From assembly GCA_024239035.1 (NCBI GenBank), contig JANBVK010000001.1:107010-171009 (forward strand): a stretch of 64,000 bases of DNA, in the 5' to 3' direction. The notes below the pieces were generated by a model. The model was given only the letters and a program-made list of their open reading frames with translations, was not told the DNA's origin and ran no database searches. The first letter of the stretch is position 1. The number at the start of each line of letters is the position of its first letter. The translations under genes were made by a program, and so were the position numbers. Positions 19,550 to 64,000 of the stretch are shown here, one piece after another. This stretch comes from Patescibacteria group bacterium. Its GTDB lineage: Bacteria; Patescibacteriota; Minisyncoccia; UBA6257; GWB1-50-10.

Positions 19550-21337
19550 TTACACTACCTCCGCCTGATAACACTGCTCGCAATAAACTATCTCCTCCCT
19601 ATCTGGTGCGTATGACGTTTCAAACTCGTTGGGACACCTGCCTTCCAGGTGATGATTATGCTTCGTGGTGTTTTTGTACACCTTGTAATCACACACGCAT
19701 TGACGATGAAAAAGCTGAGGTCGATTTCTCCACGCAACTCTATCAAAGTGTCTACAATTGAAACAAAGCCGAGGTAACGGCAAATTCAGTTGGCGATAAA
19801 ATTGAAGTTCTTGGAAAGTAATACGAAAGGCCGTTGCACAATTTTCTCCACATTGCTCAGGATGATTATTATTTTCATCATGCTGGCATTGAATGACTTC
19901 TTTTAAGATGTCATCACCCAACTTTTGAATTTGATCGGGAAGTTCATCTGAGGTTTTAGTTATCGAATATGCCCTCTCTTTTGGTCTACGCCAGTTGTAA
20001 CCCTGCGCTTTTGCTTCTTTTTCCGTAAGCGGGAAATATTCATGTGCCTGTGTTTCACTGTATCCAAATGCACTCATATCTGGCGGGAAAAATTCACCGT
20101 ATTTATACACCCGTCCTTTTGCATCAACATAAGGCATTTTGTTCATATGTTTAATGATTTTCGGAACCATCGCTCTATAGTCTTCTTTCGAATATTGCCT
20201 ATTTAAAATGCAGTATTGCTTGCTCTTCAATGCTACACAGCCAAACAAATTGTTTGATTGACGACAATTTACTGTATAGCGAGATTCATTTGCCGCAAAT
20301 GATTCAGCTGTAAAAAATGTGTTATAGATACCGTGGCCGGTGGCAATAATATCATAGGTAAGCTCTGTACCTTCGGAAGATGTAACATCCATGCCGTCTT
20401 TATTTGGACCATAAATCACGCTTTGGCAATGAGCCATATTTTGAGCAGTGCCCACAAAAAAACAATTACGAAGCTCTGTTGCATTATAGAGATAATCACC
20501 AGTACAATTTTTTGCTTGTACGCTATGCTGATATTTGACGGGGTGTTTGAGCCATACTTCCATTGCTTGTCCTCGAGCACGCTCAATACCAGACCAAGAA
20601 TCAAGTCTCATTTCTGCAAGCTTTTTTTGATATTCCTCCTTGCCGTAAGATTCATTGAAAATATGATAGCTCTTATTTCGCAACCCTGAACAACCAAAAC
20701 AACTATCACATCCGACACAATCCTGACTGAACCATACGTCGTTACACGAAGTGCAGCTTCGTGAGAAGAAGGTTTTATACGAATCATTGGTGTTGATACA
20801 GTAGTAGCAAAGCTCACATCCTTTACAGTTGACCATATCTATACACTGCTTACTCCTCAGTAATGTGACACTGTAAGCGCTATCCTCTAGGTATCCTGCA
20901 TCAAAACACAAGTAGCAGTTTTTTGCCCATGCTGCGATACTGTAATCACTGTTTGTTTTTTCCATAGACCACATAGGAGCCCATGGAACTTTGTTAAACA
21001 AGTCCCTGATTTGTTCAAAGAATGGTTTTGAGAAATCATACTCCATTCCATAATCCATGGGGTCCCATGCATCACTCTCCCAGTATTCGTAATCATAAAC
21101 TGGCATTGGAGCATCGGGAGGAATTAAGGTAAATATTTTCTTTCCTGTGGCATCACAAGTACGTTCGTAAAGGTATCGCATGTTGCGAAAAGACATCCGA
21201 CGCATTGCTCGGCATTTCCAACAAAACGTCGGCACCGGCACTTTTATCTTCTCATAAAACGCAAAATCTTGAGCCTCAACCTCAAATGAGTTCTTACAGT
21301 TCTGACATAGTCGTTTTTCGGCTTGGAAATCAGACAT
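19550..21337 (-). CDS. Cys-rich multi-CxxC zinc-ribbon protein, paralog 1 of a 4-5 member family (cytoplasmic, 595 aa)
   Basis: N-terminal CQNCKNSF...CWKCR and C-terminal RCPNEF...YCEQCYQAEVV zinc-ribbon-like motifs. Internal CKGCELCYYC and DCVGCDSCFGC clusters. No signal peptide. Confidence 0.8.
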   Translation of the reverse strand: MSDFQAEKRLCQNCKNSFEVEAQDFAFYEKIKVPVPTFCWKCRAMRRMSFRNMRYLYERTCDATGKKIFTLIPPDAPMPVYDYEYWESDAWDPMDYGMEYDFSKPFFEQIRDLFNKVPWAPMWSMEKTNSDYSIAAWAKNCYLCFDAGYLEDSAYSVTLLRSKQCIDMVNCKGCELCYYCINTNDSYKTFFSRSCTSCNDVWFSQDCVGCDSCFGCSGLRNKSYHIFNESYGKEEYQKKLAEMRLDSWSGIERARGQAMEVWLKHPVKYQHSVQAKNCTGDYLYNATELRNCFFVGTAQNMAHCQSVIYGPNKDGMDVTSSEGTELTYDIIATGHGIYNTFFTAESFAANESRYTVNCRQSNNLFGCVALKSKQYCILNRQYSKEDYRAMVPKIIKHMNKMPYVDAKGRVYKYGEFFPPDMSAFGYSETQAHEYFPLTEKEAKAQGYNWRRPKERAYSITKTSDELPDQIQKLGDDILKEVIQCQHDENNNHPEQCGENCATAFRITFQELQFYRQLNLPLPRLCFNCRHFDRVAWRNRPQLFHRQCVCDYKVYKNTTKHNHHLEGRCPNEFETSYAPDREEIVYCEQCYQAEVV

Positions 21338-21440
21338 AGCGTGTTGAGGCGAAATCCTGAGGAAAACCGAAGGGCTCCGGTTCGATAGTGAACTTTTGTT
21401 TGCAATTCTGACATTTCGAAGACACTGAGCTTGTCGAATG
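21338..21440 (-). pseudogene. Relic 5' fragment of a Cys-rich paralog (encodes CQNCKQKFTIEPE..DFA then stop) immediately upstream of the paralog 1 start
   Basis: tccggttcgatagtgaacttttgtttgcaattctgacat matches the paralog 2 5' coding region 23231..23271 at 32 of 41 positions. Frame is disrupted. Confidence 0.5.
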
Positions 21441-21464
21441 TGGTTTCGTTTCGGAATTCATAAA

Positions 21465-21502
21465 TTAATTACGTAATTAAATACGTATTTTAATACGTAA
21501 AT
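21465..21502. promoter_or_regulatory. Array of three TACGTA-centred palindromes at 12-bp spacing (AATTACGTAATT, AATACGTATT, TAATACGTAAAT) in the paralog 1 upstream region
   Basis: TACGTA at 21470, 21482 and 21494. The first two are perfect palindromes. Confidence 0.5.
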
Positions 21503-23290
21503 TCATACTACCTCCGCCTGATAACATTGTTCGCAGTAAACAATCTCCTTCCTCTCCGGAGCGTATGATGTCTCAAACTCGTTAGGGCATCTTCCTTCCA
21601 AGTGGTGGGAATGTTTTGTAGTGTTTTTGTATTTTGTAGCTTGCTCTGAGCCTGTCGAAGAGTCACACACGCACTGGCGGTGCCAAAGGTTTATAGGATT
21701 TCTTCTTCTGAAACGTGCATAATACCGGCAGTTGGGACATAGCCTAGGGAGAGGGATATTCATTTTTCTATAAAAATTGAGTTCATCAGAAACAATTCGG
21801 AAAGCCGTTACACACCTCTCTCCACATTTGCCCTGATGTGCACAACTAATAACTTCTTTCACAATACTGTCATCAACGTCTCTTATATGGTCAGGAAGTT
21901 GCTCTGCAGAGACAGTGATCTGATAAGAAGGTTTTTCGAGGTCACGCCAATTAAATCCTTGAGCAAGAGCGCGTTCTTTATCCAGCGGAAAGTAATCATA
22001 GGCCGGCGTTTCATTATAGGGGAAGGGAGACAGTTCTGTTGGAAAGAATTCTCCGTGAGCATATATCTTTCCCTTTTTATCTTTATATGACGCCTCGTTC
22101 AAGTGGTCTATAATTTGAAGAACAAGCTCCTCATATTTTTCTTTAGTATATTCTTTGTTTAAAATGCAATACTCCTTCTTGCGAAGTCCGATACACCCAA
22201 ATAAATCATGGCATCCGTTTTTACATATGTCACAATAGGTAATATTTCGCACTTCTGGCCAGGCATCCGAAGATAATTTCACATTGTAGGCATTCACGCC
22301 CATGGTGTTCACCTCATAGTTCAATTCCATCACGCAACACCCGTTGTTGATATCCATGGAATCCTTCGCTTTATTTACAAAAAGGCAATATCGGCAGTTT
22401 TCAAGTTCAGCCCCATTGAAACAGTGATAACAATCTTTAGAGTATGAAATCGTGTTTCCAACGACATTTGTTACGTTTTTAGTATAGGCATGTTTGTGCA
22501 ATGCTTTCTTTCTCATTGCTTCAAATTTAGCGGCATACGTTGAAAAATTCTTATACGAACCCGTATCAATGTCTTTCATTTTTTGCTTATAGTCCTCTTT
22601 GGTACATTGCTTATTTTCAAACACGTGAGACTTGTTCCAAATATTGCTGCTTAAAAAGCAATCTTGGGAACCCCTGGCATCGAAACAGAACGAAAGCCCC
22701 GTAGAACTCGCACAGTTTTCAACAAATATAAGTTGTGACACCTCGAGGCATTCGATACATTCATAACAATACTCTCCCCGGAGCACTATGAAACAATCAA
22801 CCAAGTTTTTAGAGTTCAAAATTCTGTAGCTATACATCGAGTCCTCGTTGTCCGAGCCTGAAAAAATGAGATAGCAATTTTTGCAATTTGCAATCTGGTT
22901 TGCGTATTCACAATTCACGCATTTATCAACTTGGAGCGCTACTCGAGGTACTTTATTCTGCAGCTCCTTAAATTGTGTAAAGAACGGTTTATTAAAATTG
23001 TATTCTCTTCCATATTGCGTTCCATCCCACTTATCTGAATACCAGCACTCTCGGCAATATACGGGGAAAGTCACATCCTGAGGATACATAGCAATAATAT
23101 CCTTGCGACAAAGGTCACATATTCGTTTATGAAGGCTTCTCTCATTTCGCCAAGAAAGTCTGCGTTGCAGCCGGCACGGAGGACACCACGTAGGCGCCGG
23201 CACTTTTATCTTCTCATAAAACGCAAAATCATCCGGTTCGATGGTAAACTGGTTTTTGCAGTTTTGACACTGTCTGGCCTCTTGTGTCAT
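21503..23290 (-). CDS. Cys-rich multi-CxxC zinc-ribbon protein, paralog 2
   Basis: Same architecture and termini as paralog 1 (CQNCKNQF...CPPCR at the N-terminus, YCEQCYQAEVV at the C-terminus). 35-bp nucleotide-identical patch with paralog 1 (GCCGGCACTTTTATCTTCTCATAAAACGCAAAATC). Confidence 0.8.
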   Translation of the reverse strand: MTQEARQCQNCKNQFTIEPDDFAFYEKIKVPAPTWCPPCRLQRRLSWRNERSLHKRICDLCRKDIIAMYPQDVTFPVYCRECWYSDKWDGTQYGREYNFNKPFFTQFKELQNKVPRVALQVDKCVNCEYANQIANCKNCYLIFSGSDNEDSMYSYRILNSKNLVDCFIVLRGEYCYECIECLEVSQLIFVENCASSTGLSFCFDARGSQDCFLSSNIWNKSHVFENKQCTKEDYKQKMKDIDTGSYKNFSTYAAKFEAMRKKALHKHAYTKNVTNVVGNTISYSKDCYHCFNGAELENCRYCLFVNKAKDSMDINNGCCVMELNYEVNTMGVNAYNVKLSSDAWPEVRNITYCDICKNGCHDLFGCIGLRKKEYCILNKEYTKEKYEELVLQIIDHLNEASYKDKKGKIYAHGEFFPTELSPFPYNETPAYDYFPLDKERALAQGFNWRDLEKPSYQITVSAEQLPDHIRDVDDSIVKEVISCAHQGKCGERCVTAFRIVSDELNFYRKMNIPLPRLCPNCRYYARFRRRNPINLWHRQCVCDSSTGSEQATKYKNTTKHSHHLEGRCPNEFETSYAPERKEIVYCEQCYQAEVV

Positions 23291-35593: not shown

Positions 35594-36028
35594 TTACTCT
35601 AAACGTATTCTTGTATTAACGTTAAATCCATTCCTAGCAATATCGGGTAATTCACTTGCTAGAAATCTCGGTAATACGGTTACTTTTGTAACATCAACCC
35701 AGTCAATTTCTGCCAACTCGTGTCCTCCGTGGGTGCTAGCAGCCACATTATGGTTTAGGTAATCTTTGGAATTTTTAATATGAAAATACAGCCCTGGATT
35801 GCTATAACCATTTTTTTCTCTTATTTGATGGATATATATTAAGTTACTAATCTCTGGCTTAACATGCGTTTCTTCAATTAATTCTCTTTCAAGGGCCGAG
35901 AGTATATTTTCACCGGGTTCCATACCACCTCCGGGCAGACACCAAAAATCAGCCGAGGCGTTGTTCCTCACTAAAAGAAACTTGCCTTCATATTCTATTA
36001 TTGCTCTAACTGAGATTGTGTTATTCAT
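35594..36028 (-). CDS. NUDIX hydrolase
   Basis: Nudix box GGGMEPGENILSALERELIEETHV. Confidence 0.85.
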   Translation of the reverse strand: MNNTISVRAIIEYEGKFLLVRNNASADFWCLPGGGMEPGENILSALERELIEETHVKPEISNLIYIHQIREKNGYSNPGLYFHIKNSKDYLNHNVAASTHGGHELAEIDWVDVTKVTVLPRFLASELPDIARNGFNVNTRIRLE

Positions 36029-36055
36029 GAATCTATTTATAGTGATCTCGTCAAA

Positions 36056-36331
36056 TTATTTTTTCCGCATCAACAACAAGCGACGCTCTGGCGTATAGTG
36101 CCACCACGGATGCGACGGAGCGCCGTTCATAAAAGCCACGGCAGCCATAAAAGTGTCCAGTAAACACGGATCATGCCGCTTACCGGTTTTCTTATTAAGT
36201 CTCTCGTAGAGCTTCAATGGGTCATTGTTTTTAAGCTCACTTGGTCTTGTAATACCCACCTCGCGAAAACACCGCGCTATTTTCGGCCCCACGTTCGGGA
36301 TATCTTCTAATTTCTTAATCATACTTTGCAA
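36056..36331 (-). CDS. Helix-hairpin-helix domain protein (Cdd1/mitomycin-resistance-like HhH)
   Basis: LEDIPNVGPKIARCFREVGITRPSEL HhH motif. 91 aa. Confidence 0.5.
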   Translation of the reverse strand: MQSMIKKLEDIPNVGPKIARCFREVGITRPSELKNNDPLKLYERLNKKTGKRHDPCLLDTFMAAVAFMNGAPSHPWWHYTPERRLLLMRKK

Positions 36332-36376
36332 AAACTTTTTCTCCCCCCTAATTTTACCACCTCTTTCACTTAAAAC

Positions 36377-36466
36377 CCTAACGGTTCAACGACACCCATC
36401 GTTGAGCCGTTAAGATTACCGCACGTCTTCACTTCATCCACATATGTGGACAAAGTGAAGACACGC
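36377..36466. repeat. Two-hairpin intergenic repeat, copy 2 (both hairpins intact: AACGGTTCAACG/CGTTGAGCCGTT and GTCTTCACTT-caTCCACATATGTGGAca-AAGTGAAGAC)
   Basis: Matches copy 1 at 3672..3762 except the loop of hairpin 1 (ACCCAT here, GGGTG there). Confidence 0.6.
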
Positions 36467-36523
36467 AAAAATCCAGAAAAAAACAAAAAGCCGCACGCAG
36501 AGCATGCAGCTTTCTGCGGCGGC
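36466..36523 (-). terminator. Rho-independent terminator of the PurM-like gene (GCCGCCGCAGAAAGCTGCATGCTCTGCGTGCGGC plus TTTTTGTTTTTTTCTGG on the minus strand)
   Basis: GC-rich hairpin followed by a long T-run in the minus orientation, 26 nt after the stop. Confidence 0.75.
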
Positions 36524-36548
36524 TGTTACTAGCCATAACGTGTTGCGG

Positions 36549-37739
36549 TCAGCGAACGCCGAGTGTTGCTCCCGAATACTCGAGATCTTTCGGCTTGATG
36601 ACGACCTTCTTCTCATCACTCCGCTCAATGTGTCCGGCATAGCATGCGCCGTAGCGATTGAGGTACTCGTCTCCTTTGAGCACGTCCCAAACTTTCCTCA
36701 CATCAGCTTCCGGCACATAGAGCGCGAAACCCGCACCCATGTTGAAGTTTCCGTATGCCTCCCAATCATCCACCGGACCATGTCTCTGCAAAAAATTGAA
36801 GATCGGTAGTTGCTTCGGCAGGCACTCGATGACGTAGGCGAACGGTTGTGTTGCCCGCATGAGCTTGCGCCAGCCGTGCCCCGTGATGTTCACTGCGTAG
36901 TGGATGTTCACACCACGATCCAAGCAATCCTCGACGAGCGCGACATAGATATACGTAGGGTCGAGTAATGTTTCGCCGTACGTTCGGCCATCGTCGAGTT
37001 TGGTGAGATAGCCGTCCGGCAGAGCGCGCGACGGGAACCATTGCGGAAAGAAAAGATGCGCTAGTCGTCGCCAGAAACCGTCTCTCCGCCCGGCTATCCT
37101 TCGAGCCATCGTGAGGGCGTTCGCGTGGATACCGGAACTCTCGATGAGAATGATAGCATCGCCATGCTGGATGCTGTCTGCCGTGATAAGCCGCTCCTTC
37201 GGCTTCACAATGCCCATCGCTGAACCGGAAAGAACAACCGCCCCCGGCATAACCACGCCCTTGAGAGTTGGTGTTTCGCCGCCACCCCACACACAACGCG
37301 CCAGCGTGCACGCCCTCTTCCAACCCCCGACGAGATCGCGACATCTCTTCTCGTCATTAAACCAGTCAGAGTCGCCGACGGCAAGGTGCATCGCCACCGA
37401 GAGCGGAAGCGCGCCGAGTGTAACCATGTCGTTCACAATCATCGCCACAGTGTCCTGCGCGATGTGATCGTAGTACGACTTACCGGTTAGGCGGTACATA
37501 GCATCAGCTACGAGGTTTTTCGTACCGAGACCCTCCTCAACATGGGCAAAGTAGCTTTTTGCCGCCTCGATGAGATAAGCACTTTCACCCCGACTCATCT
37601 CGACTTCCCGAAACTCGCCATTATTGAGACGACTGATGTTTGTTGCTGTCTCATGCCCGGCGAGTTGCGCCATCCGCTTGAACGGATCCATTGCGCCGTA
37701 ATCAACACCAACGCCGACATATGTCATTCCTCCTATCAT
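36549..37739 (-). CDS. AIR-synthase-related (PurM superfamily) protein, high-GC gene
   Basis: EEGLGTKNLVADAMY (PurM DGVGTK-like) N-terminal domain plus a C-terminal PurM-like domain. About 55% GC against a 40% window background. Confidence 0.6.
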   Translation of the reverse strand: MIGGMTYVGVGVDYGAMDPFKRMAQLAGHETATNISRLNNGEFREVEMSRGESAYLIEAAKSYFAHVEEGLGTKNLVADAMYRLTGKSYYDHIAQDTVAMIVNDMVTLGALPLSVAMHLAVGDSDWFNDEKRCRDLVGGWKRACTLARCVWGGGETPTLKGVVMPGAVVLSGSAMGIVKPKERLITADSIQHGDAIILIESSGIHANALTMARRIAGRRDGFWRRLAHLFFPQWFPSRALPDGYLTKLDDGRTYGETLLDPTYIYVALVEDCLDRGVNIHYAVNITGHGWRKLMRATQPFAYVIECLPKQLPIFNFLQRHGPVDDWEAYGNFNMGAGFALYVPEADVRKVWDVLKGDEYLNRYGACYAGHIERSDEKKVVIKPKDLEYSGATLGVR

Positions 37740-37921
37740 TGACCGCTCCTTTTTCAGTTAGAAATGAACAAATTAAGCTATTTACTCTAGCTTGATTACC
37801 AAAATCACACTAGCGAAAACATCATAAAAAATCAACCATCTGTACCACCTCTTAGTAAATAAAAGGGACGCCCACTGTTTCCAATGTGCGTCCCGTTAGG
37901 ATGAATTTTCCGGCAAGCGAC

Positions 37922-38824
37922 TTATACGCTCGCGACTTCAAGGAGCTCGTCAAGCAGCGAACTGAACACTTGCTCGTGCCGCTCGAGATAGGCGGTGGCT
38001 ACCTGCACTGCCACAGCACCGCTCTCTCGATACTCCCGAATGTCTTTTCCGTGAGTGATGCCGCCAACGCCGATAATCTGAATGCGATCCGGTAGAAGTT
38101 CTCGCAGTTGCCGAACTTGCCCGAGACCAATCGGCTTCATCGCAGGTCCCGCGAACCCGGCAAAGCCACCGCCCGGCGTAATTCTCGGCTTCGCGCCGTT
38201 GTAGCTGAACGCGTTGGGGAAGGTATTCACCGTCGTGACAACCTTGGCCACTTTCGACGCGCCGATAACCTGCGCTAATCCAGCGAGCGCGAAAGGGTCC
38301 GATAAAGGAGATATCTTGACCGACACTTTTGCGTCGGCTCCGACTCTCTCCTCGACACGATGCAGAATCTCGGTGACCAGCGCCGGATCGAAACATGCGA
38401 TGCGCTTCTGCGTACTACCCTGCCACACGTTTGGGCAGCCAAGATTCTGCTCCACGAGGTCTGCCCCACCACCGAACGCGAGCTCCGTGAGGTTTGCATA
38501 CTCCTCCGGTGAGAAACCAGCGACACTCACGAAAAGCGGTTTGTTTTCGCCGTGAGCCACGGCGACCATTTCGGAAATCGTTTCCCTGTAGTACGGCGCG
38601 CCGCGGTTCGGAAGCCCGAGCGAATTGAGCGAGAACATCGGCCCCGCCCAGTAGACATCGCCGGTGTTACCCGTTCGCGGCTCCACGGTGATCGAGCCAA
38701 CCATGACCGCCGCACTGGCTGAACGCGAAAGCTCTTTCACTTCTTCCAGCGATCTGCATGTCCCCGCCGCGTTCATCAGCGGGTGTTCCAATCGGATACC
38801 TGCGACTTCAGTTTGCAGCTCCAT
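37922..38824 (-). CDS. Dihydroorotate-dehydrogenase-like flavoprotein (class 1A-like, active-site Cys in NLGCPNV), high-GC gene
   Basis: NAAGTCRSLEEV, NLGCPN, KISP and GVGGI motifs of a DHOD TIM barrel. Confidence 0.65.
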   Translation of the reverse strand: MELQTEVAGIRLEHPLMNAAGTCRSLEEVKELSRSASAAVMVGSITVEPRTGNTGDVYWAGPMFSLNSLGLPNRGAPYYRETISEMVAVAHGENKPLFVSVAGFSPEEYANLTELAFGGGADLVEQNLGCPNVWQGSTQKRIACFDPALVTEILHRVEERVGADAKVSVKISPLSDPFALAGLAQVIGASKVAKVVTTVNTFPNAFSYNGAKPRITPGGGFAGFAGPAMKPIGLGQVRQLRELLPDRIQIIGVGGITHGKDIREYRESGAVAVQVATAYLERHEQVFSSLLDELLEVASV

Positions 38825-39241
38825 GCCTTTTTCTTCCTCTCTTCGATTGGGAATGTACGATTTCAGCCCGACTATCGGGCTGATTACTAAAATCCGGAAC
38901 GTAGATCTCAGGAGGGCAGAATGACCAGAGAATGTGAAACGGGCCTGTATTGCAACCCATCGCCGACCTCCTTCAGACGATCGTATTCCTTCGCGAGCAC
39001 TTCAGACAACGTTCTATTGAGACTACTCTCGTCTACGTTTGATACAAACCCCACTCCAAAATGATGGAAACCCTTAACATCAGTTCCAGAGCTGAATGTA
39101 TGGAACAGAACAGAAAGAAAGAAATGACAGGACATATACGCCTCCCAATATGAGTAACAAGCAAGTCAAGGTTCTGCGGAAAAGGATGACACCAGCAAGA
39201 CAAATTGTCAATTCCCACCCTTCGCCATTAAAAATGGTCAG

Positions 39242-39315
39242 TGGGCGGAACAGGATTCGAACCCGTGACCTTTCGGATGTGACCCGAACGCTCTAACCAA
39301 CTGAGCTACCCGCCC
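39242..39315 (-). tRNA. tRNA-Val (anticodon CAC), no encoded CCA. The high-GC island abuts its 3' end.
   Basis: GGGCGGGTAGCTCAGTTGGTTAGAGCGTTCGGGTCACATCCGAAAGGTCACGGGTTCGAATCCTGTTCCGCCCA cloverleaf. Confidence 0.8.
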
Positions 39316-39391
39316 ATCATCCACACCACTATTGTACCCCAAGAAACGGAGCCAACAGTTCTTGCTATCACACAAGAATTATTTTTCTCTC

Positions 39392-39763
39392 CTACTGCAA
39401 CTCTACCGTAGCTCCTGCTTCTTCTAGCTTTTTCTTAAGCTCATCTGCTTCCTCCTTATTCAATCCCTCCTTAATCGTCTTCGGAGCACCATCAACTATA
39501 TCTTTTGCTTCCTTAAGACCAACACCGGCCGCTTCCTTAACTATCTTAATCACATTAATCTTCTGATCCCCCGCAACTTTAAGCACTACATTATAAGAAC
39601 TTTTCTCTTCCTTATCGCCGGCTTCTTCTCCGCCGCCTCCAGCCGTAGCGGGCATTGCAGCCGAGACGCCAAACTTTTCCTCCAGCGTTTTCACAAGCTC
39701 GGAGAGCTCAACCACTGAAAGTTTTTCGATTTTTTCTATTATATCACTAAATTTTTCTGCCAT
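39392..39763 (-). CDS. rplL: Ribosomal protein L7/L12
   Basis: [33 protein letters not shown] ... [16 protein letters not shown]...GLKEAKD. Confidence 0.95.
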
Positions 39764-39771
39764 AATATTTT

Positions 39772-40275
39772 TTATTTATTTTCGACCATTTTTGATTTCT
39801 GATCCAAAACATAAAGTAACATTTGGAGCGGCGCAGAGAGCATTCCTACAAGCTGCCCCAAAAGAACTTCCCTGCTTGGCAACTGACCTAAACTAAGAAT
39901 CTCCGCACTCTCAACAAATGCTTTATCTTTTATATTAAAACCGCCGAGTATCTTAAGAGAGCCCTTCTCCTGCTTGGAAAACTTATACACCGTGGATGCA
40001 GTCTCATGAACGTCTTTTGGTGAAAATACCACACCCGTCTGGCCCTCAAAATTTTTTGGATCAAACTCCATCCCAATCTTCTCAAATACAAACTTAAGAA
40101 GGCGTTTCTTCACCACACGAAACACACCACCAATTGCCCGCACTTGTCCTCTAAAATCATTTAACTTATTTACTGATAACCCCGTAAAATCAACTAAAAC
40201 CACCGTCTCGCTTCCTTTGAGATTTTCCACTCCCTGCTCAACTGCTTTATTCTTTTGATCTTTTGTTTTTGCCAT
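39772..40275 (-). CDS. rplJ: Ribosomal protein L10
   Basis: [42 protein letters not shown], adjacent to rplL. Start taken at MAKTKDQ. Confidence 0.9.
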
Positions 40276-40703: not shown

Positions 40704-41786
40704 TTATAATCCCCCCTCCAAGTCCTCAAGTAATTTCTTAGCTTTCGTTGAAAGTTTTTTAGGTGTCTTTAACGTAAAAGAAATATAAAGATCGCCGCGA
40801 TTGTGAATCAAACCAAAAACGGGCATGCCTCTCCCCGGCACCCTAAGCTTGTCTTTAACGTTGAATTCTTGCGGCATAGAAACCTCAAATGTCTCCCCGT
40901 TTATATCTTCAATCTTAATTTTTCTGCCGAGTAGCGCGTCAGTAAAACTAATTTCTCGTTCCATAAGGAGATCTCTTTTATTTCTTGAAAATACCGGGTG
41001 GGGCTTTACTTTGATTACCACATAAAGATCACCGTTTGACCCTTCTCTTTCTCCCGCTTCCCCTGCGCCGCTTACCTTTATAATCTGCCCGTTTTCTACG
41101 CCGGGATTAATGTCAATTATTATCTCTTTCATGCCTAAAACCCTAGCCGCCCCCTCACAAACCTCACAAGGTTTATTCGGCATCTCGCCGCGTCCGGAAC
41201 ACTTCGGACAAGATTTGACCTGGGCAAAATTGCCAAAAAATGTTCTCTTTTGCTCTTTAATCTCCCCTCGCCCCTGACATACGGTGCATGTTGTAAATCC
41301 CTTACTCTTATCATGACCCAATCCCTTACAAGCATCGCAAGAGATATAAGTTTTAAGGCTAATTGTACGCTTAAGTCCTTTATACGCTTCCTCTAATGAA
41401 ATTTCCTGGAGTGTCTCGATATCAGAACCATGAGTATAGGTCTGACGACGCTGCCCGCCAAACTGGCCAAAAAGACTCTCTAACACATCACTTAAATCAA
41501 CCATGTCACCGCCAAAATCAACATTCCAACCTTCTCCAAAACCCGCTTGTCTGTAAGGCGCCCCTCCAGGCGTTCCCTCAAAAACCCCGCCAAACCGGTC
41601 ATACTGCGCCTTCTTTTCTTTATTAGAGAGCACTTGATAAGCCTCATTTACCTCTTTAAATTTCTTCTCGTTGCCGCCTGACTTATCAGGATGATATTTA
41701 TGAGCCAATTGGCGGTAAGCCTTCTTTATGTCCTCGTTTGAAGCATCTTTTGAGACGCCTAAAACTTTGTAATAATCCTCTGTCAT
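40704..41786 (-). CDS. dnaJ: Chaperone DnaJ
   Basis: J-domain HPD motif (AHKYHPDK), G/F region, four CxxCxGxG repeats. Confidence 0.95.
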
Positions 41787-41805
41787 AATTCTATAAATTG
41801 AGTTT

Positions 41806-42849
41806 CTAACTCAACATCACAAATTCCCGACCTCTGTTCTCTAGAGTAATATGAGCGAACCCACTAATCAATAGAAACTTAAATAACACAAACGCCACTA
41901 GTTCTATAAACCAATAAAGCAAAACAGCTATCCCCTTCACACCAAAGAAAAAAGCCAATGCTAAAGCTAAACTTAATGCCGATTTTAAGGCAGCCGACAA
42001 GCCGTTAAAATAATCTTTGGTTATCCTAAAAACCTCTCCTGTTACCGGTGCGCTGGCATTAAGCGGACCAACGACTTTCTCCAATTCTTTTTTTAATTCT
42101 AGGGAAAACCGCCTGACTGCTTCCGCTTTTTCGGGTGGTGGTAAACGCTGGAAATTAATGGCGGGATCGGCCTCTGTCTCCCCCATCGAACTGGGTATCT
42201 TTCTAAGCTGGTTCAGAGCAATAACATCAAGAAAGCTCTGAACAGTTTTATTAAAAGATATGTCGGAAAACACAAGCCCTACAATCGGCTGGGAAGAGGC
42301 AAGTGTCTGACCAACCAGTACCCTACCCAACTCGTCATTAAAATTCCCCCACGAGAAGTAATTCAGATAAAACACTATTGTCAAGAAAATTAGAAGACCG
42401 GTAACGGCTCTGGGTAAAATACTCCTGGCTGTAAAGAAAAATTTTATCTCCAAGCTGTTAGATAATACTCGCTGACCCCTTACGGCCGCAAAAACCAGAA
42501 AAATAAAGAAGATTAAAGAGCCGGCTATCAAAACCAATGAGGGAGAAGGATAAATCCGAGAATAGAAAACAATAAGCGGAGTAATCCCCTGCAAAAACAT
42601 CACTACTACCATATTAAACCTGCCTTTAATAAAAAATATCTGGAGAATCATTACTACTAAGAAACCGCCGCCAAACAAGAGGCTAAAAAACAAACGGCTG
42701 TAGTCAGCTGTCAATAAAAATTTATTGAAGAAGTAAGTAGTAGCAAAAATAAACCCAGCGCCGAATAGAACCAAGATAATTATCTTCCAGAGACTGCGAT
42801 CTTCTTCTGATTCTTTTGATTGGCTAATTACTGTCGGGTTGGGACTCAT
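41806..42849 (-). CDS. Hypothetical polytopic membrane protein
   Basis: About 8 predicted TM segments. Overlaps the dnaK 3' end. Start uncertain (MSPNPTV proposed). Confidence 0.45.
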
Positions 42850-44740
42850 TTGGTTTTTGTTCGTCCGGCTTTTTACTATCGGAGTCGGGCTTATCCTTAG
42901 TATTATACAATGACCCTCCAACTCTTTGAAGTTCCGAAGAAAGCTCAGTTGTTGCTCTTTTAATCGCTTCTATGTCTTCACCGCCCTGTACCTGCTTTAG
43001 GCTTTCTATTTTTTTATTAACGCTGTCTTTGATATCAGCCGAGAGTTTCTCTCCCGCGTCTTTTATGCTTTTCTCCGATGTATAGATAAGCGACTCGGCT
43101 TGATTTTTGGCGTCAATAAGCTCTTTCTTTTTCTGGTCTTCGGCGGCGTGTTCAGTCGCCTCCTTCTTTAGACGTTCAACTTCCTCTTTGTTCAAACTGG
43201 TACTTGCTTCAATCTTCACCGACTGACCCTTATTGGTAGCTTTATCCTTGGCTGAAACGTTCAGGATTCCGTTTACATCAATGTTAAAAGTTACCTCTAC
43301 TTGAGGAACACCGCGAGGCGACGGCGGGACACCATCTAAGATAAAACGAGCAAGTGTCTTATTATCGGCCATCATCGGCCGCTCGCCCTGACCAACATGA
43401 ATCTCAACGGACGTTTGATTGTCGGCAGCGGTCGAGAAAATCTGTTTCTTATCGGTAGGTATAGTTGTGTTTCTGGAGATCATCGGCGTAGCAACGCCGC
43501 CAAGCGTCTCAATTGAGAGCGTGAGAGGCGTAACATCAAGCAGAAGCATATCTTTTACATCTCCCTCTGGCTTACGACCTTCGTCTTTAGCCGCAATAAT
43601 CTCAGCCTGAATCGCCGCCCCGGTAGCCACCACCTCATCGGGATTGATGCCTTTATGAGGTTCCTTGCCAAAAAGTTTCTCTATTGCTTTTTGAATGGCT
43701 GGCATTCGCGTCTGACCGCCAACGAGGATGATCTCGTCAATATCTTGCATCTTCAAGCCGGCTCCTTTCGGCGACGCGGCGGTAACGGCCTCCTTTACCA
43801 GACTGATAGATTTATCAATCATCTCACCAACTAAATCTTCTAACTTAGCGCGGGTAAGTTTCATTAAGAAGTGTTTCGGACCCGATGCATCAGAAGTAAT
43901 GTAGGGTAGGTTCACTTCGGTCTCAAGCGTTGTTGAGAGTTCGTGTTTCGCCCGCTCTACCGCCTCTTTCAATCTCTGAAGAGCTAGTGAGTCCTTGGAT
44001 ATATCAATTCCTTCTTGCTTCTTAAATTCTTTAACAAGATGTTCAATTATTTTTTTATCAAAATCATCTCCTCCTAAGTGAGTGTCGCCGCCGGTCGCTT
44101 TCACCTCAACGGTATTATCAGCCACTTCAAGAATGGAAATATCAAAGGTTCCGCCGCCGAGGTCGTAAACGACTATCTTTTCTTCTTTCTTGAGGTTTAA
44201 ACCGTAGGCGAGCGCCGCTGCCGTCGGTTCGTTTATAACACGTTTCACTTTAAAACCGGCTATCTCGGCAGCGTTTTTAGTGGCTTGCCGCTGACTATCA
44301 TCAAAATAAGCAGGCACGGTGATTACTACTTCATCAATTTTCTCGCCTAAGATGGCTTCGGCATCAGCTTTCATTTTTTGGAGAACCATCGCTGATATTT
44401 CCTCTGGTTTATACCATTTTTCCCCCATCTTAATCTCAACTCCTCCTTGCTCAGAAGCCTTCATCTCAAACGGGAGCCAATCTTTATCGTGTTTCACTTC
44501 CTTGTCAGTAAACTTGCGACCGATTAAGCGCTTCACTGAAAAAATGGTGTTTTTGGGGTTTACGACCGCCTGGCGTTTAGCAAGCAACCCGACAAGCCGC
44601 TCACCCGACTTGCTGGTAGCAACTATTGAAGGGGTAGTGCGACCCCCCTCGTGATTCTCTAAAACGCGCGGTTCACCCCCCTCCGTTACTGCCATCGCGG
44701 AGTTAGTTGTTCCTAAATCTATTCCTAGTATTTTAGCCAT
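42824..44740 (-). CDS. dnaK: Chaperone DnaK (Hsp70)
   Basis: [23 protein letters not shown] and full-length Hsp70 sequence. Confidence 0.97.
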
Positions 44741-44743
44741 GTT

Positions 44744-45250
44744 TTATTTATTTTTATTTTGACCTTTTGATAATTTTACTCTCGCGGGCCTTATAACCTT
44801 ACTACCCAAAATATAACCACCTTCAACTTCTTCGGCCACGGTTCCTGCTTGTTTATCAGATTCTATCTCGCTTACAGCTTCGTGATAATTAGGATCAAAC
44901 GAGTCGCCCGGCCGAACAATAATCTTTTCCAAACCATACTTCTTAAGTATTCCTTCTAACTGGTTCTTGATTAAAGACATGCCTTTCTGGGCCGGACTGT
45001 CTTTCTCTAAAACGGTCAAACCGAGATTAAAACTGTCTAAAATAATAATTAGTTCCGATATTAAAAGTCCGTTGCTCAATTTAGCAAACTGTTCAAATCT
45101 CTGACCCTCTTCTTTCTTATAGTTAATGATATCTGCCTTTGCCCGCCTCCAACCGTTCAAATATTCTTCCCTTTCTCTCTCGCATTTGGTGAGTTTATCC
45201 TGCGGTTCGCCGGTTTTCTCTTTTTTTTCCTTTTTATCTTTCTTTTCCAC
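44744..45250 (-). CDS. grpE: Nucleotide exchange factor GrpE
   Basis: Position between hrcA and dnaK. Coiled-coil N-terminus and GrpE-like C-terminal beta domain. Confidence 0.8.
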   Translation of the reverse strand: MEKKDKKEKKEKTGEPQDKLTKCEREREEYLNGWRRAKADIINYKKEEGQRFEQFAKLSNGLLISELIIILDSFNLGLTVLEKDSPAQKGMSLIKNQLEGILKKYGLEKIIVRPGDSFDPNYHEAVSEIESDKQAGTVAEEVEGGYILGSKVIRPARVKLSKGQNKNK

Positions 45251-45253
45251 GTC

Positions 45254-45958
45254 TTATAATACTTTTTCTAAATATTTTAACAACCCTAATGATTTCTCGT
45301 AGTCCATACGCTTCGGACCAATCGCAATAATAAATATTTCTTCATTGTTTACTACCAACCGCTGCGCCACGACCGAAAGGTGATGGCTTTTAGTAATGGG
45401 GCTCTTGCCAATAAAAACTTGAGGCCAAGCGTCGTCTTCCTGCCACCGGTTGATATTCAGAGCCAATCGATTTGGTAAGAATTCAAAATCTTTTGCCACT
45501 TCCACAAAGTCAGACCGCTCATCTAACTCTAGGTTTGAAAAAAGATCTTTAAAACCGCTGCTCGACATCCGCTCAGCCACCGGTTCATAACCAACGCCGA
45601 GAACTCCCAAGTAGCCTGATAATTCTTGAATCAGCCGGTCCCTCTCTCCTTCTAAAAATTCTTCCATCAAATCAACAAACCGGTCTATGTGGCTATTCAC
45701 TCGAATCTCTTCCTCGCTGTCACGGAGCAAATTCCTCACGAAAAAACGATAAGCCTTGTCAGTCGGAAATCTTCCTCCCGAAGGATGGTTCTGATAAAAG
45801 TAACCCGCTTCGCTCAAATCGTTCAGTTCCCACCGGATCATCGCCGGCCTGATTCCAAAATCATACTTTTGGTACAGACGCTTGGAAGTAATCGGCTGAC
45901 CGGTCTTAATAAATTCTCTCACTCCGCCCTCCAAAATAGATTCTGTTCTAGGCCTCAT
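45254..45958 (-). CDS. hrcA: Heat-inducible transcription repressor HrcA
   Basis: N-terminal winged-helix ILEGGVREFIKTGQPITSKRL. Operon position upstream of grpE-dnaK-dnaJ. Confidence 0.8.
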   Translation of the reverse strand: MRPRTESILEGGVREFIKTGQPITSKRLYQKYDFGIRPAMIRWELNDLSEAGYFYQNHPSGGRFPTDKAYRFFVRNLLRDSEEEIRVNSHIDRFVDLMEEFLEGERDRLIQELSGYLGVLGVGYEPVAERMSSSGFKDLFSNLELDERSDFVEVAKDFEFLPNRLALNINRWQEDDAWPQVFIGKSPITKSHHLSVVAQRLVVNNEEIFIIAIGPKRMDYEKSLGLLKYLEKVL

Positions 45959-60802: not shown

Positions 60803-62551
60803 CTACACCACCTCCGCCTGATAACACTGCTCGCAATATACAGTCTCCGGTCTATCAGGAGAATACGAAGACTGCATAGACTTTCCACATTTCACGCATT
60901 TTCTCTCATACAACTCCAGCACGATAGAGCCGAACTTTTTTCTTTTCTCTGCCAACCGTACACTGTAATGTTTCTGGGGTAAGGGAAGATTATATCTCCT
61001 GTAAAACTCTAATTCTGCCTTTATATAGCGGGATTTCTTATTATTTTCGCTGTCAAAGACAACTTTATTCAAAATATCGTCTTTCACCTCACGAATATCC
61101 TTAGGAAGATCTTTTGAATCAACGATTTCTCCTTCCACCTCATACAAAGTCTCCTGGATATCTTCTGTCCGATATCCATACCTCCTCGCCGTCTCAACGT
61201 CATCATATCCTTTATAGGAGGTAGCAATAGAAATATTGTAGGGAAACGGTGAAAGTTTGGGTGGGAAAAATTCTCCATATTCACCTTTCTCTAACATTTT
61301 TGCCTTTACTTTATCTACCATCTCCCAATAGTCTTTCTCAGCGTACTGCTTATTGAGAATACAGAACGATTTATTTTTAAGTCCGATGCAACCAAAACAG
61401 TCGTGGCAGTTAATACAGAGATCACAATATTCTATCTCACGGCAATCATCAACATCAATGGAAAATTTAATCCCGTAGTTATTGTCACCTGCCCAAGATT
61501 CATAACTAAACTCCGTACCTACACCGCCAACAATATCGTATGAATCTCTGGTTTTCGTAACTCCAATGGAATATGCCACGTTTTCCCCACCAATAATATA
61601 AAAACAAGCGTAACAATTTTTGGAATCCTTAATATAATCACCAAAACTTGCGACCGCTCGGTCGTTGTGAGTTTCTTTATAAAACGCCTTCTTTTTCAAT
61701 TCGGTGAACTTTCCTTTTAAAGAATTTAAAGATTCTCGGTCGCCAAGATTTAACGCTCGTATCTTCTCCTCATAAGCCTTTTTAGTCAACGGTTCATTAA
61801 AAAAGTGGTACTTTTTGTGACGCAAATTCACACAACCAAAACAGTATTCGCAATCTCGACAATCGAAAAGGAAGTAGGAATAGAGACAATGCTTCGAGTG
61901 CTCCACAAAAAAACAATTGAAGAGATCAGAACTTTCGAAACAATCGTAGCAGGTATCAGAGTTTCTCAGTGCAAAACCATCAAAGCAACTTCGCGAATCA
62001 ATCAAAGAAATACTATACGCACTATCTTCAGATTGGTAAGAATCAAAAATTAAATAGCAGTTTTTCAGTCGAGTCGAGTTATTGGTATAATCACTCCTAA
62101 TGCTTGTACTATCAATGTGGAGATTGGGCCGAGGAACGTTCCGCATAAGCTCTCCAAATTGATCAAAGAATCCCCGGCTATCGGTGTAGGCGCTGGCATA
62201 ATCGTTAGGATCCCATTCCTCGCCAAACCACATCTGATGTTCATAAACTTTGTATGGTGTGGTAGGGGGGTACTGAGAAATAATCGACTTTTTAGAAAAA
62301 GATGATACTACCTTAAAAAGATTGTAAGAATTCGTAAAAGCAATTTTTCTCCGTATACGTTCCTTGGGAGATAACGTTGGCAGAGGCACCCGCATTTTCT
62401 TGTAAAACTCAATATCTTCCGGACGAACGTAAAATTTCTCACCAGAAAATCGGCAAGTCCTCCACTGACCTCCCTTCTCATCTAATTCAAGTTTGGAAAA
62501 GTATTCATCCAGCGCTTTATCAAATTGTGGAGTTTTGCTCACTTGATTCAT
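60803..62551 (-). CDS. Cys-rich multi-CxxC zinc-ribbon protein, paralog 3 (N-terminal ribbon Cys lost)
   Basis: Same conserved blocks (KNCYLIFDS, CRDCEYCFGC, CDLCINCHDCFGC, GEFFPPKLSPFPYN, LEFYRRYNLPLP) and YCEQCYQAEVV terminus. Confidence 0.8.
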   Translation of the reverse strand: MNQVSKTPQFDKALDEYFSKLELDEKGGQWRTCRFSGEKFYVRPEDIEFYKKMRVPLPTLSPKERIRRKIAFTNSYNLFKVVSSFSKKSIISQYPPTTPYKVYEHQMWFGEEWDPNDYASAYTDSRGFFDQFGELMRNVPRPNLHIDSTSIRSDYTNNSTRLKNCYLIFDSYQSEDSAYSISLIDSRSCFDGFALRNSDTCYDCFESSDLFNCFFVEHSKHCLYSYFLFDCRDCEYCFGCVNLRHKKYHFFNEPLTKKAYEEKIRALNLGDRESLNSLKGKFTELKKKAFYKETHNDRAVASFGDYIKDSKNCYACFYIIGGENVAYSIGVTKTRDSYDIVGGVGTEFSYESWAGDNNYGIKFSIDVDDCREIEYCDLCINCHDCFGCIGLKNKSFCILNKQYAEKDYWEMVDKVKAKMLEKGEYGEFFPPKLSPFPYNISIATSYKGYDDVETARRYGYRTEDIQETLYEVEGEIVDSKDLPKDIREVKDDILNKVVFDSENNKKSRYIKAELEFYRRYNLPLPQKHYSVRLAEKRKKFGSIVLELYERKCVKCGKSMQSSYSPDRPETVYCEQCYQAEVV

Positions 62552-62583: not shown

Positions 62584-64000
62584 TCATACTACCTCAGCTT
62601 GATAACACTGTTCGCAATAAACGACTTCTGGTCGGTCAGGGGCATAGGTTGTTTGAATTGACTTACCACATTTCGCACACTTCCGCGCGTAGAGTTTGAA
62701 GGGCCCCCGGCGGCGGAGACGATCAAGATAACGGCAGTTAAAACATTTCAGCGGTACAGGAATGAGCATCTTTCGATAAAACTCCAACTCTGGCTGAATT
62801 AAGCGGTAATTGAAACTACAACCCGTACACTTCAGCACTTCCTTCACAATGCTGTCAGGAATGTCTTTAATATGATCCGGTATATCTTCGGGTTGAATCG
62901 TTTCGTGGCCTTTCGTACGGGGAATATCATCTTCCCATCGAAATCCTTCAGCAACTGCCTGCTCTTTAGATAAAGGATAATTCTCTTGGGCTGGCGTCTC
63001 GTTGTAGGCGAAAAACGCAAGTCTTAGTGGAAAATATGAACCATATAATCCATCCTGTTCCATCTGTCTAACTATCTGATCTCGCATTTTACTGTAGTCT
63101 GATTCACTATACTGTTTATTTAAAATATAGTACTTTCCATTCTTCAACCCATCACATCCGAAACATTCCTCTGATCTACTCATGCCAAAACAGTACCGAA
63201 GTCCTCTGCAAGAATCACACCCCCATGACCCAATTACATTGTACGAGTATCCAACCGCAACGGTTTCCAACAAAAGCTCAGAGTCATACCCATATCCCAT
63301 AACGTCATAGCTATCCCTAGTAGATTTTGTAGCAAACTCAAATTTACAATCCTCTGATTCAGTTACCTCGAAACAGTGTTTACAATTCTTCGAATTGAAA
63401 ATATACTCCCCTTCTGAACCAACAGACTTTAAATTATTATTCTGCCTACGAGGGAACTGAAGCGCATGCTCCTCAAATTTCTCAAGCGCATCTTGAACCT
63501 TTTTATAACTCCCGGCAATCTCGGCAACTCTTTTCTCATATTCTTCTTTAGACAACGCTTCATTAAAAAAGTGATACTGCTTGTTACGCAAATTAACGCA
63601 CCCAAAGCAATCTTGACAGTTACTACAACCAAGTAAAAACCACGAGTTCAAACAGCTCATCACGTTCTGACCGTACCGCACGCCGTGGCTTTTATGCCCG
63701 TTAATGCATTCGTAAGATTGTTCAAGACTAATCGCGAAATAGATATCCAAAGAATCCCGACAATCTTTCACCCCACGCGAATAAGCTACATCTTCGTTAT
63801 AACCGCTATTAAATATTAAATAACAATTCTTGTTATATCCGGCGAAATTTTGGTATTCACTATTAACACTCGTACCTATCGTTGTATAAACGCTTTTCTT
63901 CGGTACCTTCAGCATTAACTCCTGTAATTGATCAAAGAACGCCCTCGAAGGATTATAATCTCGGGCAAAAGACTTTGCATCCCATTTATCTGAGTTATAA
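62584..64000 (-). CDS. Cys-rich multi-CxxC zinc-ribbon protein, paralog 4, 5'-truncated by the window edge
   Basis: The frame remains open upstream of the ORF-track Met to the window end (reads ...YNSDKWDAKSFARDYNPSRAFFDQLQELMLKVPKK, homologous to the WDxxxYGxEYxFxKPFFxQ block of the other copies). Ends YCEQCYQAEVV. Confidence 0.75.
   Translation of the reverse strand, partial: YNSDKWDAKSFARDYNPSRAFFDQLQELMLKVPKKSVYTTIGTSVNSEYQNFAGYNKNCYLIFNSGYNEDVAYSRGVKDCRDSLDIYFAISLEQSYECINGHKSHGVRYGQNVMSCLNSWFLLGCSNCQDCFGCVNLRNKQYHFFNEALSKEEYEKRVAEIAGSYKKVQDALEKFEEHALQFPRRQNNNLKSVGSEGEYIFNSKNCKHCFEVTESEDCKFEFATKSTRDSYDVMGYGYDSELLLETVAVGYSYNVIGSWGCDSCRGLRYCFGMSRSEECFGCDGLKNGKYYILNKQYSESDYSKMRDQIVRQMEQDGLYGSYFPLRLAFFAYNETPAQENYPLSKEQAVAEGFRWEDDIPRTKGHETIQPEDIPDHIKDIPDSIVKEVLKCTGCSFNYRLIQPELEFYRKMLIPVPLKCFNCRYLDRLRRRGPFKLYARKCAKCGKSIQTTYAPDRPEVVYCEQCYQAEVV

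Follow-up and report, generated by a model that had tools for sequence, protein, structure and literature searches.

We analyzed a 64,000-nucleotide (nt) stretch of a Patescibacteria group bacterium genome (assembly GCA_024239035.1, contig JANBVK010000001.1, positions 107,010 to 171,009 of the forward strand), hereafter the window, which carries four paralogous minus-strand genes, p1 to p4, encoding large Cys-rich proteins of one family. The explanation that we tentatively favor is that these would be cytoplasmic, zinc-stabilized finger-solenoid proteins that act together with orphan VirD4-like ATPases, being their clients, cargo or adaptors. A rigid core of two homologous and tightly wound beta-solenoids, with a narrow interior lined by Cys/Ser at every third residue, carries at each end a pair of treble-clef fingers (zf_Tbcl and zf_Tbcl_2). 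The family may work with the soluble VirD4/TrwB-like hexameric ATPases of Paceibacteria. The near-invariant C-terminal finger, of a type that is also found on one ATPase paralog, would serve as a common docking or "address" module, and the various paralogs would owe their different specificities to their solenoid and linker surfaces, which evolve faster. The physical interaction between the family and the ATPases, as well as what is bound or moved, is inferred indirectly.

Finger modules and duplicated solenoid of the family

An initial annotation of this DNA had described two adjacent genes for 595-amino acid (aa) proteins (cluster 1, here p1 and p2) and two distant copies (p3 and p4), and all four were found, p1 and p2 at the positions given there (Table 1). 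The p1 and p2 proteins are 44% identical (tblastn E 3e-155), and p3 and p4 show 33-35% identity. Cys represents 6.0% of the residues in the family versus 0.71% in the neighboring proteins, an enrichment that is therefore not due to chance. The four genes account for 11% of the coding residues of the window and for 58% of its Cys codons. In bases, they cover 6,742 of the 64,000 nt (10.5%), with 5.6% for cluster 1 alone, so that the share of about 5% previously given for the whole family was too low. As had been annotated, we did not detect any signal peptide or transmembrane segment in p1-p4: hydrophobic segments were absent (maximum Kyte-Doolittle 19-residue mean of about 1.0) and the N-termini are polar and not signal-like. 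The public call for p1 at ENA has 551 aa, begins at Met45 and leaves out the conserved N-terminal finger; therefore, we consider the 595-aa start at 21337 to be the right one.

An AlphaFold2 (AF2) model of p1, built on a 58-sequence alignment, was confident, with a pLDDT of 87.2 and a pTM of 0.89. The layout along the protein is a zf_Tbcl + zf_Tbcl_2 module, a WD/PFF block, solenoid B1, helices, solenoid B2, a GEFFP block and a second zf_Tbcl + zf_Tbcl_2 module. Both kinds of module are internally duplicated: residues 12-65 match residues 498-551 for the fingers (hhalign 99%, E 6e-18) and residues 130-240 (B1) match residues 280-390 (B2) for the solenoid (hhalign 99.8%, E 5.6e-30). These duplications, the tandem arrays of up to 9 copies and the linkage to VirD4-like ATPases described below were absent from the initial annotation.

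Conservation and Cys co-occurrence were determined on a 414-sequence family alignment. The last 28 residues (568-595) form the most conserved segment of the family, with an entropy of 1.39 bits versus 2.09 overall. Over this segment the window paralogs are 74% identical, compared to 16-52% in the other segments, and the final YCEQCYQAEVV is identical in p1, p2, p3 and p4, in agreement with the invariance previously claimed for it. The other motifs that had been quoted all occur in p1, and most of them in p2, but CKGCELCYYC and DCVGCDSCFGC are spellings specific to p1: p2 has EYCYECIEC at the first of these positions and has lost the second. With pI values of 9.3 and 8.4, the finger modules are basic; the protein as a whole is mildly acidic, with a median pI of 6.1. 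One metagenomic homologue, P0240 (731 aa), is a single family member fused to an N-terminal GNAT acetyltransferase domain.

The ends of the protein had been described as zinc ribbons. They are indeed zinc-finger modules, more precisely treble-clef fingers of the zf_Tbcl (PF13451-like) and zf_Tbcl_2 (PF23477/TIGR04272) types. The curated cut-offs are 27 bits (Pfam) and 36 bits (NCBIfam) for zf_Tbcl_2, and 24 bits for zf_Tbcl (PF13451). When excised C-termini were compared to Pfam zf_Tbcl_2 (PF23477), p4 scored 27.6, p3 26.8 and p1 18.3 bits, with only p4 at the cut-off; against NCBIfam TIGR04272, the scores were 19-21.5 bits, under the cut-off. Scores against Pfam zf_Tbcl were 19.3 bits for p2 and 14.8 bits for p1, also below the cut-off, and the C-terminal copy gave no match to this profile. 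The zf_Tbcl pattern C-x2-C...F-x-I...FY...P-x-P-x2-C-x2-CR is present, and CxxC-x17-CxxC is exact in the C-termini of p3 and p4 and in the second N-terminal finger of p2. In the C-terminal finger of p1 and p2, C568-x17-C586-x2-C589 is kept and an insert displaces the first Cys. The fold search with an AlphaFold model that the initial annotation had proposed, here performed for p1, gave zinc-ribbon matches for the end module and the weak fold matches described below. In BFVD, zinc-ribbon matches to the N-terminal finger reached a probability of 1.0, and phage "putative zinc-ribbon domain" models superposed at 0.5 A over 40 residues.

Conservation of the finger cysteines is 86-99%, and they are kept or lost as sets (r = 0.98-1.0 for C64/C82/C85 and r = 0.85-0.92 for C500/C525/C528), which, as read from the alignment, is the behavior of discrete metal sites. 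A CxxC-x17-CxxC domain binds Zn by inductively coupled plasma mass spectrometry (ICP-MS) in small Methanosarcina mazei proteins (PMC12704099). Indirectly, from the set-wise Cys and from this experiment, which concerns only a distant CxxC-x17-CxxC protein, we infer zinc rather than another metal in the family fingers. In Cys spacing and flanking motifs, the four terminal modules agree with known zf_Tbcl and zf_Tbcl_2 domains. In contrast to the experimentally tested members, which are small and stand-alone, the family has two finger pairs around a 420-residue core. Moreover, unlike known zf_Tbcl_2 domains, the last finger of p1 and p2 is split by a His-rich insert, and the zf_Tbcl matches are sub-threshold.

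Between the finger modules, the Cys distribution is strictly periodic. In residues 130-231, Cys was observed only in every third column, its frequency in the other two phases being near zero (at most 0.02). The period-3 power of B1 was 21 times the variance, a value as high being obtained in 0 of 5,000 shuffles, and period 3 was also significant in B2. The profile autocorrelation had its maxima at lags 12 and 24, not 18, and the 12-residue solenoid repeat can be written x-x-[S/C]-x-x-C-[YF]-x-C-x-[ND]-x. The presence of Cys was uncorrelated between solenoid positions, each being lost independently, and the same positions are occupied by Ser, Val or Ala in B2 and in many members. Because of this period-3, 12-residue repeat and of the uncorrelated cysteines, the C-x2-C-x2-C-x2-C runs, previously presented as clusters, correspond to the visible portion of a narrow solenoid lined by Cys/Ser; they are neither ferredoxin-like nor discrete zinc sites. 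An electron-transfer protein with multiple Fe-S clusters, as the high Cys content and these runs could suggest, is for several reasons highly improbable. The run at residues 171-180 is just 15-76% conserved, the solenoid cysteines are individually replaceable and do not co-occur as sets, and the only conserved sets of four Cys are the finger-type sites, a domain type that binds Zn. In addition, the pattern CxxCxxCxxxCP is absent, in line with the non-ferredoxin spacing already pointed out in the annotation, and no Pfam Fer4 match was obtained.

The weak fold matches of the p1 model are mostly left-handed beta-helix (LbH) acyltransferases and gamma-carbonic anhydrases. An enzyme built on an LbH, of the hexapeptide acyltransferase or gamma-carbonic-anhydrase type and with paralogs for different substrates, would also fit the invariant acidic or polar residues E151, D167, D317, N228 and N379, and the GNAT fusion of P0240 is a weak hint in the same direction. 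However, we consider this explanation very unlikely, since no Hexapep match (PF00132) was found in Pfam even at E <= 1, the repeat has a length of 12 and not 18, and neither the [LIV]-G motif of hexapeptide proteins, whose repeat reads [LIV]-[GAED]-X2-[STAV]-X, nor a conserved catalytic His is present.

Antifreeze solenoids are also among the weak PDB fold matches of the p1 model. The Tenebrio antifreeze protein TmAFP is a beta-helix with the repeat TCTxSxNCxxAx, in which C2, S5, C8 and A11 point inward and Cys2 and Cys8 are joined in core disulfides (PMC8038014). Like TmAFP, the family solenoid is very Cys-rich and combines a 12-residue repeat with small residues (Cys/Ser/Ala) at every third position, where TmAFP has its inward-pointing ones. 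For this part, the confidence of the AF2 geometry is only moderate. Unlike TmAFP, the family is bacterial and cytoplasmic and has zinc fingers; it shows no sequence homology to TmAFP (no PDB sequence match), no TxT ice-binding face in the consensus and no signal peptide. Because a signal peptide is missing, disulfides are not expected in the family solenoid. A Cys-lined 12-residue solenoid is an unusual structural solution in a cytoplasmic protein.

Linkage with VirD4-like ATPases

The genomic context was analyzed in a family-centered sample of 79 related genome loci, which are phylogenetically non-independent. The family genes form same-strand tandem arrays with up to 9 copies in 22 kb, and the genes are spaced as in operons, with a median gap of 12 bp and many overlaps of 4 bp. 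Adjoining copies within a locus share a median of 44% identity, and the closest relative was found in another genome for 143 of 148 paralogs; the paralogs are therefore old. No clean collinearity, that is, no fixed orthologous set of paralogs, was found across the arrays.

Only one neighbor recurs beside these arrays, a soluble P-loop ATPase scoring above the Pfam cut-offs for T4SS-DNA_transf (VirD4) and TrwB_AAD_bind. Such a VirD4-like ATPase was present in 35 of the 79 family-centered loci; in 28 of them it lay at most two genes from a family member, and in 20 it was directly adjacent. By our estimate, about 4% of random 20-gene windows contain a VirD4-like gene. The linkage was also reciprocal. 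In 80 metagenome loci centered on one of the ATPases, ATPase-B, which form one orthologue group (84-100% identity), the family was present in 71 and directly adjacent in 61; among the loci of at least 12 kb, it was present in 46 of 47. The linkage was seen in at least two gene-order contexts: (i) secDF, sigma70_r4/HARE-HTH, a membrane protein, a HEPN-like protein, the ATPase, cutA1 and the family genes, and (ii) dnaK, a further gene, ATPase-A, the family genes (usually 1 to 6), ATPase-B and dnaJ. The interval from ATPase-A to ATPase-B contains 0 to 6 family copies, and the members beside the ATPase do not belong to one subfamily. In locus pairs with ATPase-B 85-92% identical, the identity was 74% for ATPase-A, 76% for DnaJ, 59-65% for the other flanking genes and 48% for the best family pair. 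Within this very conserved frame, the family genes therefore change fastest, the flanking genes as a whole being 59-87% identical.

A finger of the same type was observed on the ATPase side. ATPase-A has a zf_Tbcl_2 finger after the ATPase domain (54.8 bits), and the motif CxxC-x15-19-CxxC was present in 61 of 64 long ATPase paralogs versus 3 of 114 short ones. In Patescibacteria, 5,713 VirD4-like homologues have been reported in 2,918 genomes, about 2 per genome, almost all of them far from virB4 (PMC12102498). The reciprocal linkage would provide a concrete partner for these abundant VirD4-like genes, which are mostly encoded away from secretion channel genes.

Further observations concern the ATPase genes themselves. 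The long paralog (locus L091, 4242-6437; also L085-L164 and L001-L079) consists of the ATPase domain, the zf_Tbcl_2 finger and a Pro/Ser/Lys-rich tail of about 250 residues that is likely disordered. Across many metagenomes, the short paralog located upstream of dnaJ keeps 85-91% identity, above that of DnaJ itself. Upstream of one ATPase paralog (L037, 6229-6747; L011, 4918-6303), we observed a small membrane-anchored HEPN-like protein with an R-x4-H motif, which has a weak match to CARF_HEPN in PADLOC, and a 460-aa membrane protein. The C-terminal half of the phage family phrog_5156 strongly matches the ATPase domain and its N-terminal half very weakly matches the 460-aa membrane protein (E 0.067); tentatively, phrog_5156 would be a fusion of the two.

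The family could instead consist of housekeeping nucleic-acid-binding scaffolds that are independent of the ATPase, with basic treble-clef helices binding RNA or DNA, solenoids used as spacers or oligomerization surfaces, and VirD4 adjacency reflecting inherited synteny. The basic finger modules with their conserved CRxxRRxxxRN helix, the translation and cell-wall genes that surround the window copies and their orthologues (lepA, aminoacyl-tRNA synthetase genes, the mraY-ftsW-murG cluster and mreBCD), the age of the paralogs and their operon-like spacing are all consistent with such a role. We nevertheless regard it as unlikely, because the ATPase link is reciprocal, is seen in two or more gene-order contexts and extends to family members of diverse subfamilies, and because the finger is common to the family and the ATPase. 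Moreover, the whole protein is mildly acidic and no conserved housekeeping neighbor was found in the 79 loci.

The position of the cassette between dnaK and dnaJ might point to proteostasis or stress, with the family acting as a thiol/metal buffer or a redox-switched chaperone whose 24-41 cysteines per copy, many of them in the solenoid lining, would serve to store or sense metals (Zn, Cu or Fe) or to form disulfides reversibly. Such a role would account for the share of the window Cys codons held by the family and for the CutA1 neighbor in 5 loci; the inward period-3 Cys/Ser logic is that of TmAFP with its Cys2-Cys8 core disulfides (PMC8038014), and the variable number of Cys, lost independently, is as expected for metallothionein-like binding. 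It appears rather improbable to us, since the occurrence of Ser, Val or Ala at the same positions in B2 and many members indicates that Cys is dispensable for the fold and for the role of the solenoid. Furthermore, the strict conservation of the WD/PFF and GEFFP blocks and of the four fingers exceeds what a buffer needs.

The association with VirD4-like ATPases that we favor includes the particular case of a secreted substrate. The FtsK/VirD4-superfamily coupling ATPases have known substrates, such as the effectors of the Xanthomonas type IV secretion system (T4SS), which share a conserved C-terminal VirD4-interacting domain, and the mycobacterial PE/PPE-ESX families. Like these, the family forms arrays beside a conserved coupling ATPase, keeps its extreme C-terminus constant, and has cargo-like genes that evolve faster and vary in copy number. 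In contrast to them, the family loci have no secretion channel genes nearby, the ATPases have no membrane anchor of their own, and the whole family architecture is conserved, not only the C-terminus. That the family would be exported cargo of the orphan VirD4-like ATPases, recognized via the invariant C-terminal finger and possibly delivered into host cells, is to be seen as a rather improbable reading of the sequences; if true, this would be the first effector family of episymbionts of the candidate phyla radiation (CPR). A thiol-lined solenoid holding a chain of metal ions is less likely than such an export.

Several points weigh against the proposed association with the ATPases. The confidence of the p1 model is lower at residues 130-230 (pLDDT 64-76), within the first solenoid half. 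A channel whose cargo has to be unfolded would be poorly suited to a 65-kDa protein with multiple zinc sites, and the conservation of the whole architecture is unlike that of typical modular effectors. Inherited gene order may account for part of the linkage, the 80 reciprocal loci being one orthologue group. Finally, we did not find any VirD4-like gene in the 64-kb window, nor within 10 kb of the closest orthologues of p1 or of P0112, a fifth paralog of the source genome. Therefore, the ATPase link holds for the family and not for these particular copies.

Distribution and novelty of the family

Homologue searches returned 5,795 sequences in a 90%-identity database, or 5,098 clusters at 50% identity, of which 2,194 were below E 1e-30 and nearly all full length (550-600 aa). 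All the named matches belong to the Parcubacteria/Paceibacteria branch of Patescibacteria (Nomura-, Staskawicz-, Lipton-, Jorgensen- and Giovannonibacteria, "Minisyncoccia" and others). With genomes of about 0.7-1 Mb, Paceibacteria nevertheless retain from 5 to more than 9 copies of a protein of about 590 residues. The source genome has at least five, the fifth copy, P0112, lying between gluRS and an M23 peptidase gene on the 729-kb scaffold of this metagenome-assembled genome.

The initial annotation had not recognized a characterized family, and we likewise found none in Pfam, NCBIfam or the PDB that spans the whole protein. For p1 and p2, Pfam returned 0 whole-protein families at E <= 1 and NCBIfam none, and PDB sequence searches with a single sequence, the family profile or the excised solenoid gave no match. 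PADLOC defense profiles had no match for p1 or p2 and one weak, unrelated match for p3. Rfam and tRNA scans gave nothing related, and we found no description of the family or its domains in the literature on CPR. The family is public only as "hypothetical protein", with no family model, structure or paper. Its finger and solenoid parts are familiar fold types, whereas the whole protein and its pairing with a VirD4-like ATPase match no known kind.

That this is a phage family was considered and ruled out: tblastn against phages gave no match, PHROGs only a weak match of the solenoid repeats to phrog_15341 (function unknown), and IMG/VR viral contigs one marginal contig-edge fragment. Against plasmids, tblastn gave a single composition-type match, an xxC-repeat open reading frame (ORF) of Campylobacter. 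This unannotated 134-aa ORF is located downstream of topoisomerase III on the Campylobacter fetus plasmid pCfviMP1 (L165, 3103-3507). It is made nearly entirely of x-[ND]-C-x-x-C hexads, with about 30 xxC triplets, and resembles a pure form of the family solenoid repeat. Its second-best PDB match was the Tenebrio antifreeze protein 1EZG, which was not significant (E 0.58), and a homologue search seeded with this ORF returned nothing.

Window paralogs, their neighbors and minor features

The initial annotation had placed cluster 1 in a polysaccharide operon. The neighbors that it named are correct, with DUF4012, GT4, Bac_transf and TP_methylase/RsmI genes upstream and His_Phos_1 and LepA genes downstream, all on the minus strand. 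However, DUF4012, GT4, sugar transferase, RsmI, His phosphatase or LepA genes adjoin the family in 0 of the 79 other loci and are not found near the closest orthologues of p1, whose only common neighbor is a preceding second family gene. We therefore rejected the polysaccharide or cell-envelope operon as a conserved context and regard it as incidental. The coordinates of the four paralogs, of the segments of p1 and of a relic ORF are given in Table 1.

Table 1. Family genes of the window, segments of p1 (with residue numbers) and relic ORF; positions are those of the window.
Feature	Position	Strand	Characteristics
Paralog p1	19550..21337	(-)	595 aa, 34 Cys; best-conserved subfamily, orthologues at 60-68% identity
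Paralog p2	21503..23290	(-)	595 aa, 41 Cys; second N-terminal CxxC-x17-CxxC finger intact
Paralog p3	60803..62551	(-)	582 aa, 24 Cys; N-terminal finger cysteines and CxNCR knuckle lost; canonical C-terminal CxxC-x17-CxxC finger kept
Paralog p4	62584..64000	(-)	5' end beyond the window; C-terminal finger reaches the Pfam zf_Tbcl_2 gathering score
p1 8-56, N-terminal zf_Tbcl-like treble-clef finger	21170..21316	(-)	Predicted ligands C11, C14, C39, C42 and basic helix CRxxRRxxFRN; Cys 94-96% conserved
p1 57-86, degenerate second finger	21080..21169	(-)	Intact CxxC-x17-CxxC in p2 and about 1/3 of the family
p1 87-128, WDxxxYGxxYDFxxPFFxQFxxLxxxVP block	20954..21079	(-)	W91, F106, Q109, P118 96-100% conserved
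p1 129-231, solenoid half B1	20645..20953	(-)	About 8.5 copies of the 12-residue repeat; AF2 beta-bridges every 6 residues
p1 280-381, solenoid half B2	20195..20500	(-)	Homologue of B1, Cys-poorer; ends LFGCxxLxxKxYCILNxQYSKExY; pLDDT 87-98
p1 382-482, helix, YGEFFPxxxSPFxYNET block and linker	19892..20194	(-)	G414, F416, P418, Y426 92-99% conserved; low entropy
p1 483-546, second zf_Tbcl-like finger	19700..19891	(-)	C500, C525, C528 and C484 or C496; homologous to the N-terminal module
p1 547-595, C-terminal zf_Tbcl_2 finger	19553..19699	(-)	C547/549, C568, C586, C589; His-rich insert; ends YCEQCYQAEVV
Relic 43-codon ORF in the p2-p1 spacer	21330..21461	(-)	Family N-terminus (MNSETK...CQNCKQKFTIEPE, first ~30 residues), then decay

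The relic ORF overlaps the start codon of p1 out of frame, and probably remains from a paralog that once lay between p2 and p1 and was deleted. Right after the p2 stop codon, at 21470-21499, we observed three TACGTA palindromes that are exactly 12 bp apart. Such paired TACGTA sites occur nowhere else in the window, with 0 expected from shuffles. The triple site was not found in other family loci, and it could be an operator. Two antisense ORFs, one inside p1 (20333-20689 (+), 118 aa) and one inside p2 (21836-22090 (+), 84 aa), are most likely spurious.

Elsewhere in the window, a hrcA-grpE-dnaK-x-dnaJ operon occupies positions 40704-45958, in which dnaK and dnaJ are separated by an unannotated 371-aa gene (41806-42921). 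In related genomes, the ATPase-family-ATPase cassette is found at this dnaK-dnaJ position; no homology links the 371-aa gene to the spacer gene found in the cassette-bearing genomes. Finally, positions 36000-40000 have a GC content of 50-51%, versus about 42% elsewhere, over AIR-synthase-related and dihydroorotate dehydrogenase-like genes, and may be a foreign segment.

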